Below, piece after piece: positions 9,732-22,480 of a DNA stretch of 25,437 nt. This DNA comes from an uncultured Gammaproteobacteria bacterium (GTDB lineage: Bacteria > Pseudomonadota > Gammaproteobacteria > Arenicellales > DRJH01), in contig CAZTLH010000001.1 of assembly GCA_964614335.1 (NCBI GenBank), positions 1 to 25,437 on the forward strand. Direction: 5' to 3'. The notes beneath the pieces were generated by a model. The model searched no databases, was not told the DNA's origin, and was given only the letters and a program-made list of their open reading frames with translations. The position numbers and the translations under genes are program-made. Every line of letters starts with the position of its first letter. Within the stretch, counting starts at the first letter, position 1.

Positions 9732-9765
9732 CTTAAGTGTGCCTTAAGCAATCCATCAGTATGAT
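9732..9765 (+). promoter_or_regulatory. PmrA/QseB-type box plus -10 for the repeat lipoprotein gene
   Basis: CTTAAG-TGTGC-CTTAAG (9732-9748), then 11 nt, then TATGAT (9760-9765). Confidence 0.65.
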
Positions 9766-9809
9766 GCTCGTCACTCATTGATAATCTCTCAAATCAGGAA
9801 AAACAGACC

Positions 9810-10814
9810 ATGAAAACGACACACCGTAACTTACTCTCCCTCGCAATTGGATTAACCCTGGCTGCATCACTCAGTGCCTGTTCTGGTGGTGGATCGACAT
9901 CAGGTGGTGGATCTGTTTCCACGGCCAGTTTAGGCAAAACCACGTTAACAGGAAATATCACTGCTTTAGGTTCAAGTCCGGTTGCCATGAACCAAGGCAT
10001 CGATACGCAGATCGCACGCCTGGCAGTCCGCCAACTCTTCGCCGGTAATAATGCTCAGGCGCTGGATTGTACGTCGATTACAGCGTCAGTGGGAAGTATT
10101 TCAAAACGTGTCAGCTCTTCTTGTGACTTCAGACTGGAAGGCGTGCAGGAAGGCTCTCAAACCCTTGTACTGACTTCCTCAGCCGGAACAGCAGCAATCC
10201 CGGTGCACCTGAATCGAAATGAGACAACGCACTTGGACAATATCCGGATTACAGGAAGCACTGCCAGTTCAGATGGTCATACCATCACAAACAAAAAAAC
10301 AGGGACTACTCGTCATGAAACAGGCGAACGTAGTAGGCCTGGCCAAAACAACGATGTAAATCATGTCAGTAATGATACCAACCATAACAATACCCATGCC
10401 AGCAATGACGCCAACCATGTCAATGACAACTCCCATGCCGGCAATGACGCCAACCATGTCAATGACAACTCCCATGCCGGCAATAACATCAACCACACCA
10501 ATGACAACTCACAGACCGGCAATGACGCCAATCATGTCAATGACAACTCCCATGCCGGCAATGACACCAATCACGCCAATGACAACTCCCATGCCGGCAA
10601 TGACGCCAACCATGTCAACGACAATTCTCATGCCGGCAATAACACCAACCACGCCAATGACAGCTCTCACACCGGCAACGATGGCAACCATACCAATGAC
10701 AACTCTCACGCCAGTGACAACTTCCAAGCCGGCAATGACAGCGGCCATGCAAGCCACGGGAATGATAACGGCAATCAATGTGATCATTCTGTAGGCGTTT
10801 GCACGGCCGGTTAA
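9810..10814 (+). CDS. Lipoprotein with a small beta-rich domain and a His/Asn/Asp-rich repeat tail; function unknown
   Basis: Basic N-region, hydrophobic core, lipobox LSA-C24, Gly/Ser linker; in-frame 13-aa repeats; followed by a terminator. Confidence 0.85.
   Translation: MKTTHRNLLSLAIGLTLAASLSACSGGGSTSGGGSVSTASLGKTTLTGNITALGSSPVAMNQGIDTQIARLAVRQLFAGNNAQALDCTSITASVGSISKRVSSSCDFRLEGVQEGSQTLVLTSSAGTAAIPVHLNRNETTHLDNIRITGSTASSDGHTITNKKTGTTRHETGERSRPGQNNDVNHVSNDTNHNNTHASNDANHVNDNSHAGNDANHVNDNSHAGNNINHTNDNSQTGNDANHVNDNSHAGNDTNHANDNSHAGNDANHVNDNSHAGNNTNHANDSSHTGNDGNHTNDNSHASDNFQAGNDSGHASHGNDNGNQCDHSVGVCTAG
10404..10715 (+). repeat. Eight tandem 39-bp coding repeats (consensus NDANHVNDNSHAG)
   Basis: Units start at 10404, 10443, 10482 ... 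10677, for example AATGACGCCAACCATGTCAATGACAACTCCCATGCCGGC; degenerate half-units on both sides. Confidence 0.95.
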
Positions 10815-10865
10815 ACTGCACGCCGTCATACTCATATATTATTGGATTATCGCAACCTCTTATTG

Positions 10866-10892
10866 AGCGCAGGCCTCGCCTGCGCTTTTTTT
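10866..10892 (+). terminator. Rho-independent terminator after the lipoprotein gene
   Basis: AGCGCAGGC-CTC-GCCTGCGCT stem running into a T7 tract. Confidence 0.85.
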
Positions 10893-10976
10893 GTCGTGAC
10901 AAGACTGCATGGACAGGACAGACTGCAGGTTGTAAAGTGTCGTGGCTCTTCAACGATACATTTTGGGAAATACTCT

Positions 10977-11492
10977 ATGAAAATTCGATTTACAATCGTT
11001 TCTACTATCGCTGCAATGCTCTCACTTCTCTCTTCAGTCAGTACAGCGGAAACCTTCCCGGTAATCAAAAACAAAACCGTGCTGGCCGAATGCACCGATT
11101 GTCACATGGCTTTCCCGCCACAGACGCTCACAGCAAAATCCTGGCGCGACATGATCAGTCATTTGTCAACACACTTTGGAGAAAGCATCACACTGGATGC
11201 TGCAATAACCAAAAATATCACCGCTTATTATGTAAAATATTCAAGTGACAAGAGCAATATTCATGCGGCAAAAAAATGGCGCCAAAAAACCAGGGCTACC
11301 CGTATCACCGAAGCAAGCCGCTTTATCAAGAAGCATCGTAGTTGTGCCAAGGCGGTGTGGACTCAACCCGAAGTAAACTCCAGGGCCAACTGTCAAGCTT
11401 GTCATAAAACCATGCAAAAGAATGGCAGCACCCGGGTGAACTTATCATTTTTACCGAAAAAATTGCGCAATAGCTGCGACAGCGGCGAATAA
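10977..11492 (+). CDS. Diheme cytochrome c (DHC family), paralog 2
   Basis: Signal peptide from MKIRF (10977); CTDCH and CQACH heme sites; DHC motifs HFG and FIKKH supply the distal His. Track start 10842 crosses the terminator. Confidence 0.88.
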   Translation: MKIRFTIVSTIAAMLSLLSSVSTAETFPVIKNKTVLAECTDCHMAFPPQTLTAKSWRDMISHLSTHFGESITLDAAITKNITAYYVKYSSDKSNIHAAKKWRQKTRATRITEASRFIKKHRSCAKAVWTQPEVNSRANCQACHKTMQKNGSTRVNLSFLPKKLRNSCDSGE

Positions 11493-11513
11493 AGCCTGCA
11501 ACGAATATTTTTC

Positions 11514-12845
11514 TTAATTTGCAGGTCGAATTGGTAATGCAATTTCGACCTGTAATCCGTGCAGTGAGTGTGAATTTCTGAATATCATACTCCCACCATA
11601 ATGCTTGACAATATCACTAACAATCGACAAACCAAGGCCATGACCTTCTACAGTTTCATCAAGACGTTGACCGCGTATTGCCAATTTATCTAGTGTCGGA
11701 GCATCGAGTTCGTCGCCGTCATCCTCTACATGGATCTCGATCATGTCACCATGATGTATTCGACACAACACCCGGGAGCGGGCCCATTTAACCGCATTGT
11801 CCAGCACATTCCCGAGCAATTCCAGCATATCTTCGCGCTCACCAAATTTTGGCAAGTCAGTATCGAGATCCAGTGAAATGTCTATTGTTTTGTTCCGATG
11901 CATGGCCCGTAATGCCGACACCAGATCAGGCAGCTCTTTACGGGCATCAAACGGTGCAATAGAACTACCACTGCCAACAATTCTGGCTCGCTTCAATTCG
12001 CGCTGTATCAACTGCTGGATCCGACTGGCCTGTGTGGTCGCTATAACAACCTCAGATACTGACATTACTTTGTTGCGCTCAAGAATTTGCATCAATAACG
12101 CCAATGGTGTCTTCAAGGCATGCGCGAGATTACCCAGCGCATTGCGCGAGCGCTTCTGACGATCGCGCAACATACCCAATAAATGATTGATTTCGCTAAC
12201 TAACGGCTGGACTTCAGTGGGGACATGCTGGTTTAACTGTTCTTTTTCCCCACTGGACAAGGCCAGTATATCCTTTTGAATTTCCCCCAACTTGCGAACC
12301 GTGGTCCTGACCACCAACCGCTGTAACAATAGCAACAACAACAGTCCCGCCACAGACAAGATCGCAAAATAACGCACGAACACATTCGTTCGGTCATGAA
12401 AAGGGATCATGTCCTCGGCCACAGCAATGGTAAGATTTTGGCCCTTTCGAACAAAACCACGTGAAATCAATAATAGTTCCTGCCGCTGCGGCCCGGCCAC
12501 GGTCCTCGTTTGACTCTGCCCCGGTGCAAGATCAGAAACGGTCAGTGTAAAATCCCAGAGGGATCGGGATGTAAATGCGGTATTACCTGGATAATGAACA
12601 ATATAATAGTGGCCAGAAAAAGGCTGGCGATAGACCGCAGGCATGTGCTCTCGGACCGGACCTACATTTCGCTGCTGCAGATCGATGGAGGCTAACAGAC
12701 TTTCAATATCGTGATTGAGTTTATCTGCGACGAACTGTTGGGTTAGTGATGAAACGGCAAAGTGTCCCAACATCCAGACCGATGTCAAAACAATGACTAC
12801 ACCAATGGTCAGACTTAAATGCAGATACGATGCCAGTGACCTCAT
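11514..12845 (-). CDS. Sensor histidine kinase, PhoQ/FeuQ-like
   Basis: Two TM helices, HAMP-like region, H-box LAHALKTPL, N-box ELLGNVLDNAVKW, G2 GHGLGLSIV; start overlaps the regulator stop (ATGA). Confidence 0.93.
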   Translation of the reverse strand: MRSLASYLHLSLTIGVVIVLTSVWMLGHFAVSSLTQQFVADKLNHDIESLLASIDLQQRNVGPVREHMPAVYRQPFSGHYYIVHYPGNTAFTSRSLWDFTLTVSDLAPGQSQTRTVAGPQRQELLLISRGFVRKGQNLTIAVAEDMIPFHDRTNVFVRYFAILSVAGLLLLLLLQRLVVRTTVRKLGEIQKDILALSSGEKEQLNQHVPTEVQPLVSEINHLLGMLRDRQKRSRNALGNLAHALKTPLALLMQILERNKVMSVSEVVIATTQASRIQQLIQRELKRARIVGSGSSIAPFDARKELPDLVSALRAMHRNKTIDISLDLDTDLPKFGEREDMLELLGNVLDNAVKWARSRVLCRIHHGDMIEIHVEDDGDELDAPTLDKLAIRGQRLDETVEGHGLGLSIVSDIVKHYGGSMIFRNSHSLHGLQVEIALPIRPAN

Positions 12846-13510
12846 GTTACAGTATCAACCAGCTGGTAACCTCGGCCACGATGGGTGTGGATCGCATTCG
12901 TATGCAGTTTCTCGCGTAAATTATGAATATAAACTTCAAGAACATTGCTGTCACCGGAACCTTCATCATCGTACAACAACTCAATCAAACGGGTTTTCGA
13001 GAGGATTTTACCGCTGTTAAGCATAAAGATTTTTAGTAATCGAAACTCCATCGCCGTCAGTCGCGTTGCGTTCCCATTCCTGTCGATGACCTGATACTGG
13101 TCTTCATTAAGGGTCAGACCGGCAACGGTCAGGTGTTGACCTGCCTGACCGGCGGCTCTTCGTAGCAAGGCCTCCACACGGGCTTTAAGTTCTTCAAAAT
13201 GAAAGGGTTTGCCCACATAGTCATCCGCGCCAGCCTGCAGGCCGGAAACCCGTTCTGACCACCCATCTCTTGCCGTCAGAATAATGACCGGTACAGCATT
13301 TTCGTTGTTACGCCAGTTTTTCAGCACTTCCAGACCACTGCGACCCGGCAAGCCGAGGTCAAGAATAATGGCAGCATAACCGACTTCATCACCCATAAAT
13401 TGGGCATCAATGCCATTGTCCACCACATCCACTGCGTAACCGCATTGCTGCAATTCATTACTCAGCACATCGGACAGCCCCTTGTCATCCTCTGCCAGTA
13501 GAAGTCTCAT
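12842..13510 (-). CDS. OmpR-family response regulator (PhoP/FeuP-like receiver, PmrA/QseB-like recognition helix)
   Basis: LLAEDD, ILDLGLP (phospho-Asp), ILTAR, GADDYVGKPF, winged helix SNVLEVYIHNLREKL...RGRGY. Confidence 0.95.
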   Translation of the reverse strand: MRLLLAEDDKGLSDVLSNELQQCGYAVDVVDNGIDAQFMGDEVGYAAIILDLGLPGRSGLEVLKNWRNNENAVPVIILTARDGWSERVSGLQAGADDYVGKPFHFEELKARVEALLRRAAGQAGQHLTVAGLTLNEDQYQVIDRNGNATRLTAMEFRLLKIFMLNSGKILSKTRLIELLYDDEGSGDSNVLEVYIHNLREKLHTNAIHTHRGRGYQLVDTVT

Positions 13511-13534
13511 ATTCGAATCTTGTTTCGTACCCTA

Positions 13535-13746
13535 GGAGGCTGTCCGAGAACAGGAGCCGACCGGTTTGTTGCTCCTGCAAAACCGGCACTTCCGCCATCC
13601 ATGGCGGTCGTAGCGAGGGAAAGCGGATTTGAGGACATTTTTTCGATCCTTTGAGGCGAATAGTCATTCTATTTAACGAAAATGAGCGGAAAAATGGACC
13701 AAAGCCCGATTTTCCGCAGTAGGCTCTCTGTTCTCGGACAGCCTCC
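13535..13746. mobile_element. 212-bp MITE with 19-bp perfect terminal inverted repeats and TA target duplication
   Basis: Left end GGAGGCTGTCCGAGAACAG (13535-13553); right end CTGTTCTCGGACAGCCTCC (13728-13746); TA at 13533-13534 and 13747-13748; internal hairpin CCGCCAT-CC-ATGGCGG (13592-13607); no transposase. Confidence 0.88.
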
Positions 13747-14042
13747 TAATCAGTTTCAATTTTTTGTTTAATGATTGTACCACTAGATGCATCGACCTCG
13801 ATCTCCAGCACTTCCCCGCCAGGGTTTACAAAATCCAGTTCATAAACAGGCAAATCATATTTGCTTTCAAGCTTGACTTTGAGCAAGTGATACCCCGGCA
13901 ATTCTTTTTGAAGAGCGGATAATATCTTGTCAAGGGACAAAATTTTTCCACTGGCGAGCATTTCGCGAACTTCCAGCTGTTCCTGATTGAAGTCGTCCGC
14001 CACACTAACCTGAACTGCCAGCATGATCAAAAAACCGATCAT
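13746..14042 (-). CDS. PepSY-domain periplasmic protein
   Basis: Hydrophobic signal; ILSLDKIL...LKVKLE...VYELDFV..GEVLEIEVDASSGTII PepSY pattern; usual neighbour of this TCS type. The frame is open upstream to 14075, so the start is uncertain. Confidence 0.85.
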   Translation of the reverse strand: MIGFLIMLAVQVSVADDFNQEQLEVREMLASGKILSLDKILSALQKELPGYHLLKVKLESKYDLPVYELDFVNPGGEVLEIEVDASSGTIIKQKIETD

Positions 14043-14068
14043 GCCGACAAATTTCAGTGGTACAGCAA

Positions 14069-14581
14069 TCAGTCGTCACCACCACGGCTACGCCCTGGAA
14101 TTCGGACACCGTGCTCACTAAATACACCCTGCTTTGCGCCTGTGTGGCAGGCATCGCAACGAGCAAAGGTTTTGACCTTTGGATTGCCTGTTACCCACCG
14201 TGAAGGCACTTCATTATGGGCCCGATGAAACCAGGTAGTATCGGTAATCCGGTTTGACTTTGATGTCGCTGACGAGAACCAGCGACGACCCGAGGCATTT
14301 TTTTGTAAATACTGGCTGATTAATTTTGACGTTTCAGGAGACAACTCTGCGTTATCACCGAAATGGTCGGCTAAATTACTCATAATCCCTTTCCAGCTTT
14401 TAGAAGACAAACCTTTTGTTGGATAGGCAACGTGACATGCACTGCATTCAGTTTGATATGCCTTTGAACCTTGACTGGCCAGTGCGACACCTGATTGCGC
14501 CAGCCATAAACTGACGGTCAACATCAGCAAGCCGGTTAAGCCGGTTAAGCCGGTTAAAGAGGACTGAATTTTTTTCATCAT
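14069..14581 (-). CDS. Diheme cytochrome c (DHC family), paralog 1
   Basis: Signal peptide; ECSACH, SWKGIMSNLADHFG, RITDTTWFHRAH, RCDACH; AAGGAG SD. Confidence 0.92.
   Translation of the reverse strand: MMKKIQSSLTGLTGLTGLLMLTVSLWLAQSGVALASQGSKAYQTECSACHVAYPTKGLSSKSWKGIMSNLADHFGDNAELSPETSKLISQYLQKNASGRRWFSSATSKSNRITDTTWFHRAHNEVPSRWVTGNPKVKTFARCDACHTGAKQGVFSEHGVRIPGRSRGGDD
14531..14557. repeat. Three perfect 9-bp tandem repeats (GCCGGTTAA)3 encoding LTGLTGLTG in the DHC signal peptide
   Basis: Direct reading of the sequence. Confidence 0.9.
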
Positions 14582-14626
14582 AAAAGCTCCTTATTTAAAT
14601 ATTAATGTATGGTGACCGAGAAACAC

Positions 14627-15028
14627 TTATTGAGCGGACAAAAATTGTAATACATCACCTTTTTCCTGTGCTGTACACACACGTCCGAGAACCCACTTGC
14701 AATTACGCCGGAACCATTTTTTCACCTTTTTGGCTTCGGTCAAACGAGCTGGATTGACTGATGGTGCCATAGGCTTGATCACCTTCCCCGTCTTGACATG
14801 CTTGCCAGACACCTTCAGGTTCCTGGTATGACAGCCAGTACAATCACGTTGTTTGCCCGCTTTCGCGTTGTTGTGTTTGGTATTCCAAAAAGTCTGCCCG
14901 GCGGCTGCCGTGAAAGGGCCCGCACCGGCTGCCTGGTACTTGCTTTGCAAATCGGATACCACACTCGCAGATGCCAGCAATGGCATTGCAGTCAATAACA
15001 GGACTACAGGTAATTTGAATCGTCGCAT
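14627..15028 (-). CDS. SHP-type (Sphaeroides heme protein, DUF1924) monoheme cytochrome c
   Basis: Signal peptide; CTGCH; GKVIKPMAPSVNPARLT; KWFRRNC...LGRVC with the family's axial Asn and C-terminal disulfide pair; adjacent to DHC. Confidence 0.9.
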   Translation of the reverse strand: MRRFKLPVVLLLTAMPLLASASVVSDLQSKYQAAGAGPFTAAAGQTFWNTKHNNAKAGKQRDCTGCHTRNLKVSGKHVKTGKVIKPMAPSVNPARLTEAKKVKKWFRRNCKWVLGRVCTAQEKGDVLQFLSAQ

Positions 15029-15086
15029 AGTAAAACTCCTGGTTATTTATGAAAGAATATTCCTGACACGAAAACGTATGACACCC

Positions 15087-15119
15087 AGCATACACCGGGA
15101 TACTTAATTAAGGCTTAAG
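15087..15119 (-). promoter_or_regulatory. PmrA/QseB-type box plus -10 for the SHP-DHC-PepSY-TCS operon
   Basis: On - strand CTTAAG-CCTTA-ATTAAG (15119-15103), then 10 nt, then TATGCT (15092-15087); overlaps the DsbA-like stop codon. Confidence 0.6.
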
Positions 15120-22452: not shown

Positions 22453-22480
22453 ATTTTAACCCTTGATTAAGAAACCTGAA

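Follow-up and report, generated by a model that had tools for sequence, protein, structure and literature searches.

A shared BqsR-type box suggests common control of an SHP operon and a His-rich lipoprotein gene in an uncultured marine gammaproteobacterium

The 25-kb stretch of DNA analysed here, which we call the window, comes from an uncultured marine gammaproteobacterium (contig L001 is identical to it) and contains a cluster of seven genes bracketed by two copies of a short DNA box (Table 1). On the minus strand, the genes for a sphaeroides heme protein (SHP), a diheme cytochrome (DHC1), a small PepSY protein, a response regulator (RR) and a sensor histidine kinase (HK) follow one another; facing them on the plus strand are the genes for a lipoprotein with a His-rich tail and for a second diheme cytochrome, DHC2. 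Open reading frame (ORF) calling and a Pfam scan found all seven genes and both boxes where an earlier reading, made from the letters of the window (the sequence-only reading), had placed them. The export signals which that reading attributed to all the non-regulatory products are also present: N-terminal signal sequences are seen on the lipoprotein, DHC1, DHC2 and SHP, and that of the PepSY protein is short, lacks a basic n-region and terminates in the family-conserved A|DD motif. The interpretation that we favour, and that we hold with somewhat more belief than doubt, is that an envelope-signal system of the BqsRS/DbfQRS family autoregulates the SHP operon and also induces a lipoprotein that probably binds cations.

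Table 1. Features of the gene cluster and their positions in the window. The DHC2 start is the Joint Genome Institute (JGI) gene call on the identical contig L001.
Feature	Position	Strand	Description
Box 1	9732-9748	+	BqsR-type, CTTAAGTGTGCCTTAAG, exact TTAAG-N6-TTAAG; in the divergent region between the EamA and lipoprotein genes
-10-like hexamer	9760-9765	+	TATGAT, 11 nt past box 1
Lipoprotein	9810-10814	+	334 aa; lipobox LSAC; no Pfam or NCBIfam family above threshold
Tandem repeat	10393-10712	+	39-nt (13-aa) unit, 8.2 copies, 82% matches; encodes the His-rich tail
Intrinsic terminator	10865-10895	+	Stem GAGCGCAGGC/GCCTGCGCTT (10865-10887), then T-run
DHC2 promoter candidate	10910-10938	+	Sigma-70-like, TGGACA-17-TAAAGT; consensus match only
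DHC2	10977-11492	+	PF09626; 171 aa; two CxxCH
HK	11514-12845	-	SK1-type sensor histidine kinase; cytoplasmic part PhoQ-like with HAMP domain
RR	12842-13510	-	OmpR/PhoB-family response regulator
Hairpin element	13533-13748		216 nt; 21-nt perfect terminal inverted repeats (TAGGAGGCTGTCCGAGAACAG); between PepSY stop codon and RR start codon
PepSY	13746-14042	-	98 aa; small periplasmic protein
DHC1	14069-14581	-	PF09626, E = 1.1e-32
SHP	14627-15028	-	PF09086/DUF1924, E = 1.3e-38; monoheme cytochrome
-10-like hexamer	15087-15092	-	TATGCT, 10 nt past box 2
Box 2	15103-15119	-	BqsR-type, CTTAAGCCTTAATTAAG on the minus strand, exact TTAAG-N6-TTAAG; overlaps the stop codon of the DsbA-like gene

The two boxes are the only TTAAG-N6-TTAAG loci of the window, where 0.04 would be expected by chance and none of 100 shuffles yielded as many as observed; read as CTTAAG-N5-CTTAAG, box 1 is exact and box 2 has one mismatch. 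Because each box is followed at 10-11 nt by a -10-like hexamer, it occupies the place of the -35 region. The BqsR box of Pseudomonas aeruginosa is the same motif, TTAAG(N)6TTAAG, whose position overlaps that of RNA polymerase (PMC4358008, PMC13522522); a copy lies in front of the bqs operon, whose first gene is bqsP (PMC4358008). The box in front of SHP is kept in all three close relatives, L012, L015 and L016 (whose SHPs are respectively 84%, 79% and 85% identical to that of the window), 71-76 nt 5' of the SHP start and as the sole match in each locus. Upstream of the two close homologues of the lipoprotein, P0001 (locus L003) and P0002 (locus L010), a box lies 93-101 nt 5' of the start, again as the sole match in each locus, and box 1 and its -10 element both align with theirs in a promoter alignment. 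Since the same box precedes both transcription units, the regulator most likely controls the SHP operon and the lipoprotein. The claim of the sequence-only reading that one two-component system (TCS) co-controls the two is probably correct, given that the same box/-10 layout stands before both and is kept in the relatives and at the lipoprotein homologues elsewhere.

Across 79 other SHP loci (956 kb), 21 exact BqsR boxes were counted where shuffles give about 1.9, and 11 of the 21 fall within -250/+60 of the start of an SHP-cluster gene, a zone that makes up 8.5% of the sequence; on this ground, BqsR-type control of SHP operons seems to recur. The exact box is found in only 16 of these 79 loci, and the idea that it is a universal feature of TCS-linked SHP loci was dismissed. 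Two further sites were noticed. In the SHP locus of a Candidatus Parabeggiatoa (L047, 5889-6649), four identical copies of GTTAAGAAAACGTTAAG, spaced by 120-168 nt, and a fifth variant form an array of BqsR-type boxes just upstream of, and extending into, an annotated cytochrome b ORF. In the window itself, the sequence TTAACCCTTGATTAAG (22456-22471), in the short flgF-flgE gap, resembles a BqsR box with one mismatch; it is probably fortuitous, since about 0.9 one-mismatch sites are expected by chance in the window.

The regulator encoded next to the boxes has the features of one that would recognise them. The best PDB match of its DNA-binding domain is that of CarR/BqsR (9yfa, E = 1.4e-21, 79.8 bits, with about 55% identity over 90 residues as estimated by eye), against 52 bits for PhoP and 42 bits for PmrA, and the RR is predicted to have BqsR-like DNA-binding specificity. 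Over its full length it is closest to BasR/PmrA and to the receiver domain of CarR (=BqsR), the top PDB match being BasR. The half-site and the spacing of PmrA/BasR boxes are nearly those of the BqsR box. The boxes could then be real and be read by a different PmrA/BqsR-like regulator encoded elsewhere, the adjacent TCS controlling neither the lipoprotein nor, possibly, SHP. The full-length match to BasR and this close similarity of the boxes speak for such a regulator, as do the several SHP loci that have a box without an adjacent TCS (for example L048, L051 and L094) and the lipoprotein homologues that bear it far from any TCS. However, the DNA-binding domain of the local RR is much closer to that of BqsR than to anything else solved, and in four related genomes the box precedes the operon that encodes the RR, which is the usual autoregulatory layout (compare dbfQRS and bqsP; PMC12714742, PMC4358008). 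We regard control by a distant regulator as quite improbable and retain the local RR as the one that would read the boxes.

The two genes that accompany the RR place it in a family whose members have been studied experimentally. The periplasmic part of the HK contains the motifs FSGHYY (residues 76-81) and SRSLWD (residues 93-98), both kept in 29 SHP-linked HKs; variants of such motifs, SGVYWQ and RSRSLWD, serve to recognise SK1, a kinase that is always accompanied by the periplasmic protein Orf1 and that is also found in Vibrio (PMC2909971). The PepSY protein corresponds to the Orf1 of Meyer et al. and to DbfQ/BqsQ, of which it is an analogue. In Vibrio cholerae, DbfQRS is a PepSY-RR-HK system in which, according to genetics, DbfQ biases DbfS toward phosphatase activity, a direct DbfQ-DbfS interaction having been reported; the system is activated by envelope damage such as polymyxin, thymol and lipopolysaccharide defects, and the levels of DbfR suggest that its operon is subject to positive autoregulation (PMC12714742). 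The BqsS system of P. aeruginosa, with its PepSY proteins PA2658 and PA2659, is treated as the ortholog of the DbfS system (PMC12714742). BqsS binds Fe2+ through E45 and E48, R44 and N49 being also important (PMC4358008, PMC12424716), and the BqsR regulon promotes tolerance to cationic stress (PMC4358008).

The first two genes of the operon encode a recognisable redox pair. The window SHP, a class I c-type cytochrome with one CxxCH, has the SHP of R. sphaeroides as its best PDB match (1dw0, E = 1.3e-19); its N109 aligns with the distal ligand Asn88 and its C110/C118 with the Cys89/Cys97 pair, and these three residues are invariant across 37 homologues. We judge the protein to be a genuine SHP and not a cytochrome c''. 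The gene for DHC1 starts 46 nt downstream of SHP, and, of the 75 DHCs found downstream of SHP in other loci, 73 have DHC1 rather than DHC2 as the better-scoring match, from which DHC1 is read as the orthologue of the soluble DHC that follows SHP. Its signal peptide contains a perfect 9-nt tandem repeat (14529-14557, AAGCCGGTT, 3.2 copies, encoding LTGLTGLTG), and its length varies from 165 to 188 aa in relatives. DHC2 is only 28% identical to DHC1, a value on which the idea of a recent duplication was rejected. The larger DHC-like genes that lie upstream of SHP in other loci lean to DHC2 (29 of 33), and its other relatives, at about 50% identity, are encoded directly downstream of a cytochrome b561-like gene in loci without SHP. 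By these comparisons DHC2 belongs to a clade usually paired with a cytochrome b561-like protein and is assigned to the membrane/cytochrome-b-partnered type.

The arrangement of the left arm and its distribution bear on a second alternative, which was that of the sequence-only reading: one self-contained and co-inherited module, in which the TCS would induce a lipoprotein-DHC2 operon together with SHP-DHC1 and thereby couple an expanded periplasmic heme chain to a metal-binding lipoprotein. In its favour, the genes lie side by side and point inward, with a matching box at either end, and L016 also has a DHC2 convergent with HK. However, a strong intrinsic terminator (-18.6 kcal/mol and z = -4.2 for 10865-10887 and its T-run) separates the lipoprotein from DHC2, so that the left arm consists of two transcription units and not of the single operon that had been drawn. 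A homologous terminator, GCGCAGG..CCTGCGC followed by T8, lies after the lipoprotein homologues in L003 and L010. Box, -10 element, ORF and terminator being kept at these homologues, the lipoprotein gene is a conserved monocistronic unit whose box moves with the gene and not with the neighbourhood. The region upstream of DHC2 in the window lacks a BqsR box, and the terminator together with the sigma-70-like site makes DHC2 a separate, box-less unit. In L016 the sequence upstream of DHC2 contains a degenerate half-site only (TTCTTAAC...CAAGAT), and the EamA-DHC2 intergenic region there does not align with that of the window. A 12-bp palindrome, TTGTCGTGACAA (10891-10902), just past the terminator and upstream of the promoter-like site of DHC2, could be an operator for some DHC2 regulator.

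The comparison of the relatives leads away from a module as well. L012 passes directly from HK to EamA and has neither the lipoprotein nor DHC2; in L016, DHC2 (64% identical) stands alone between EamA and HK, without the lipoprotein; in the window, the lipoprotein cassette is placed between EamA and DHC2. The co-occurrence of such lipoproteins with SHP loci, which the sequence-only reading had made the test of its proposal, is not found: in 80 SHP loci, each from a different genome, no His/Asn/Asp-rich lipoprotein is encoded within 8 kb. Conversely, the lipoprotein homologues elsewhere, which lie between a MacB-type ABC transporter and an M16 peptidase, have no cytochrome or TCS nearby. With the distance of DHC2 from DHC1 and its cytochrome-b-paired clade, these observations make the self-contained module very improbable. 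The cluster is a lineage-specific mosaic built around a known operon, and DHC2 was acquired in this lineage.

The lipoprotein, the second presumed target of the RR, consists of a signal peptide with its lipobox, a Gly/Ser linker, a beta-sandwich (about residues 85-172) and a disordered tail rich in Asn, His and Asp. The tail comprises about nine copies of NHxNDNSHAGNDx, a unit unique to the window protein; in the C-terminal 159 residues, Asn makes up 28%, His 13% and Asp 13%, with about 21 His, two per repeat unit. An AlphaFold2 model built on a 6-sequence alignment (mean pLDDT, the predicted local distance difference test, 46.5) is confident only for residues 85-172 and leaves the tail disordered. 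A Pfam match of the repeats to Lysostaphin_N, which scored 29.7 bits where the cut-off is 60, was rejected as an artefact of repeat and composition. The only close homologues in a set of 5.8 billion clustered proteins are P0001 and P0002 (54-56% identity), to which HMMER, run over all of 1.84 billion representatives, added four faint relatives. Of these, P0173, P0174 and P0175 (E from 1e-6 to 2e-4, with about 1e-6 for P0173 and P0174 against the window domain by phmmer) share the lipobox, the Gly/Ser linker, the beta-sandwich and an Asp/His-rich low-complexity tail; the tails of the relatives differ in sequence and have in common their acidic/His composition alone. P0173 and P0174 match CarboxypepD_reg (PF13620), and the window lipoprotein and P0001 have no match to PF13620 or PF13715. 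P0173 is encoded beside a CzcCBA-like RND efflux system and P0174 beside a heavy-metal P-type ATPase, a neighbourhood that supports a cation-related role of the lipoprotein without proving it.

Some side observations concern these homologues. In L101 (6001-7305) and L102 (5733-6941), the loci with the CzcCBA-like pump and the P-type ATPase, the gene of the distant relative, which has no box upstream, is followed in each case by that of an uncharacterised 151-152-aa protein, and the two may form a conserved gene pair. In L003, a 55-aa ORF upstream of P0001 (5462-5629), whose N-terminus MQMKTATRNLLVIVLGL... resembles the lipoprotein signal peptide MKTRTRNLLSLAIGL..., may be a duplication remnant.

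A third alternative accepts the regulon link and denies the metal: the tail would serve as a disordered spacer of the envelope or surface, as an adhesin or as a coat that interacts with mineral surfaces, and the system would sense envelope damage or cationic stress. The inducers of DbfQRS, which are agents and defects of the envelope and not iron (PMC12714742), and the role of the BqsR regulon in cationic-stress tolerance (PMC4358008) are in keeping with it, as are the predicted disorder of the tail and the merely compositional likeness of the tails of the relatives. On the other side, a tail with about 21 His in 159 residues, set out in a regular repeat with two His per unit, and distant relatives that adjoin metal efflux genes argue for metal binding. 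We consider a lipoprotein of this non-metal kind unlikely and continue with a cation-binding one.

The genes that flank the cluster are ordinary chromosomal genes: on the left a FetAB-like ABC pair, AhpC and EamA, on the right a cytoplasmic DsbA-like gene, map, glnD and flgB-H. The gene upstream of SHP is likewise DsbA-like in L012, L015 and L016. Beyond EamA, the segment 5810-8759 encodes an AhpC/TSA peroxiredoxin, a 191-aa protein without a family and a FetA/FetB-like pair (ABC ATPase and UPF0014), with the iron efflux permease FetB as best NCBIfam match at a score under the family cut-off; this neighbourhood is not kept in L012. Within the right arm, a 216-nt element between PepSY and RR folds into one extended hairpin (-108 kcal/mol, z = -8.8). 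L015 has a related copy, with the same repeat, at the corresponding position, and the element is absent from L012 and L016. An Rfam scan of the window matched no family, this hairpin included, which argues that it is not a known RNA; it looks like an insertion of the miniature inverted-repeat transposable element (MITE) or repetitive extragenic palindromic (REP) kind.

Several points weigh against the interpretation that we favour. For the regulator, CTTAAG is a palindrome and boxes of the PmrA type closely resemble it, so that another PmrA/BqsR-like RR, encoded elsewhere, could use the two boxes; most of the distant SHP loci with linked PepSY, RR and HK lack an exact box, and the enrichment is real but partial; and the 216-nt hairpin, by parting PepSY from RR, could uncouple the TCS genes from the SHP promoter. 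For the signal, the Fe2+ motif RExxE of BqsS is not found in residues 35-155 of the HK. Where BqsS has R44-E45-x-x-E48-N49, the window HK, matched by residue number only, has N44-H45-D46-I47-E48-S49, in a conserved segment with the consensus RL.HD.ESLL; and DbfQRS is unresponsive to iron (PMC12714742). For the lipoprotein, the protein has neither a Pfam nor an NCBIfam hit, and a Foldseek search of its model against the PDB returned nothing below E = 0.1. For the redox pair, the sequence-only reading had cited the known operon type in which SHP and DHC are joined by a cytochrome b and a TCS; the operon type is the right one, but the cytochrome b that would feed the heme chain is absent from the whole window, where no ORF matches cytochrome b queries at E <= 10.

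The model we propose combines two outputs of one envelope-signal pathway. The PepSY protein, the HK and the RR would constitute a pathway of the BqsRS/DbfQRS family, equivalent to Orf1, SK1 and RR of Meyer et al., in which the periplasmic PepSY protein, by analogy with DbfQ and DbfS, would tune the kinase. The signal would most plausibly be a periplasmic cation (Fe2+ or another divalent metal) or a cation/envelope stress, and this is the least secure step. The phosphorylated RR, as its sequence and the comparison with BqsR suggest, would bind TTAAG-N6-TTAAG in place of a -35 element and would thereby activate its own operon, SHP-DHC1-PepSY-RR-HK, in a positive autoregulation. It would also activate the monocistronic lipoprotein cassette, with its beta-sandwich and its disordered Asn/His/Asp-rich tail. 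SHP and DHC1 would act as a periplasmic heme redox pair for a small ligand (O2/NO), and the lipoprotein would most likely bind or buffer divalent metal cations at the inner face of the outer membrane.

The physiological role of SHP has, to our knowledge, been an open question since 1985, and the signal of SK1, its commonest partner kinase, has never been identified. The locus brings together the SK1/Orf1 regulators known from SHP operons, a defined DNA box and the BqsRS/DbfQRS family, which has been studied by experiment, and it indicates an orphan His-rich lipoprotein as a probable second regulon member, which hints at a metal or cation theme. Could SHP operons commonly be outputs of BqsR/DbfR-type sensors of periplasmic cations or envelope state, the same sensor deploying, in this vent-associated gammaproteobacterium, an expanded His/Asn/Asp-repeat lipoprotein as a periplasmic metal sponge? 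We offer this extension tentatively and find it possible but doubtful. If it were true, the function of SHP would be tied to exposure to Fe(II) or other metals, for example to the clearing of oxidants derived from O2 or NO during an influx of reduced metals into the periplasm, and the BqsR box would offer a means to predict SHP-linked regulons in uncultured bacteria that oxidise sulfur and iron.

Among known His-rich metal binders are the proteins of the ZnuA type with their His-rich loops, the Hpn-like proteins and the CarboxypepD_reg lipoproteins encoded beside Czc/Cus systems. The window lipoprotein resembles metal-binding lipoproteins of this kind in its succession of lipobox, beta-sandwich and low-complexity Asp/His-rich tail, and through its distant relatives P0173 and P0174, which adjoin an RND metal efflux pump and a P-type ATPase. 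It differs from them in having no family match, two close homologues only and a 13-residue repeat of its own.

In DbfQRS of V. cholerae, as in the window, the gene for a small periplasmic PepSY protein precedes those for an OmpR-type RR and a HK within one operon (PMC12714742), and autoregulation is a further likeness, suggested there from DbfR levels and here from the box. DbfQRS controls biofilm genes, responds to envelope damage and has no cytochromes in its operon, and the window is compared with it by layout only. The likeness to BqsRS/CarRS (bqsPQRST of P. aeruginosa) comprises one or more PepSY genes upstream of RR and HK (PMC4358008, PMC13522522, PMC12424716), the identical TTAAG-N6-TTAAG box over the -35 region, its position before the first gene of the system's own operon, and a regulon that takes in small exported proteins encoded elsewhere. 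Unlike BqsS, the window HK lacks the RExxE Fe2+ motif and has a larger periplasmic domain of the SK1 type; the window operon carries cytochromes, whereas the bqs operon has none; and the target lipoprotein is without counterpart in the described BqsR regulon.

Among the closest known systems is the SK1/Orf1 SHP operon. Meyer, Kyndt and Cusanovich described SHP in 2010 as part of an operon of three to six genes, which also comprises cytochrome b, a DHC or two, and a sensor kinase/regulator pair of one of three kinds; the six-gene form CytB-SHP-sDHC-Orf1-RR-SK1 (sDHC being the soluble DHC) occurs in Shewanella oneidensis, Mariprofundus ferrooxydans, Magnetococcus and Reinekea, and their paper defines no DNA box for SK1-type regulators (PMC2909971). 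The sequence-only reading knew of no description of the combination, a novelty that does not extend to the right arm, since operons of the order SHP-sDHC-Orf1-RR-SK1 with one or two DHCs were already in that paper. The window has this very order, with the PepSY protein as Orf1; its HK has the SK1 motifs, and its SHP retains the Asn ligand and the disulfide. SHP, DHC, PepSY and RR are co-directional in 30 of the 80 SHP loci, and, with the SK1 motifs and the equivalence of PepSY and Orf1, this makes the right arm the known arrangement minus cytochrome b. It departs from that arrangement in that the lineage formed by the window, L012, L015 and L016 has no cytochrome b in the cluster and a DsbA-like gene upstream instead, in the place of DHC2, which is convergent and lies on the far side and not upstream, and in the addition of a lipoprotein cassette with the same box. 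A search of a literature library found no paper linking the sphaeroides heme protein with BqsR, BqsS, DbfS or PepSY. In conclusion, the right arm is an already described kind of operon, and what the window adds to the SHP/SK1 systems is a defined box and a probable second regulon member.

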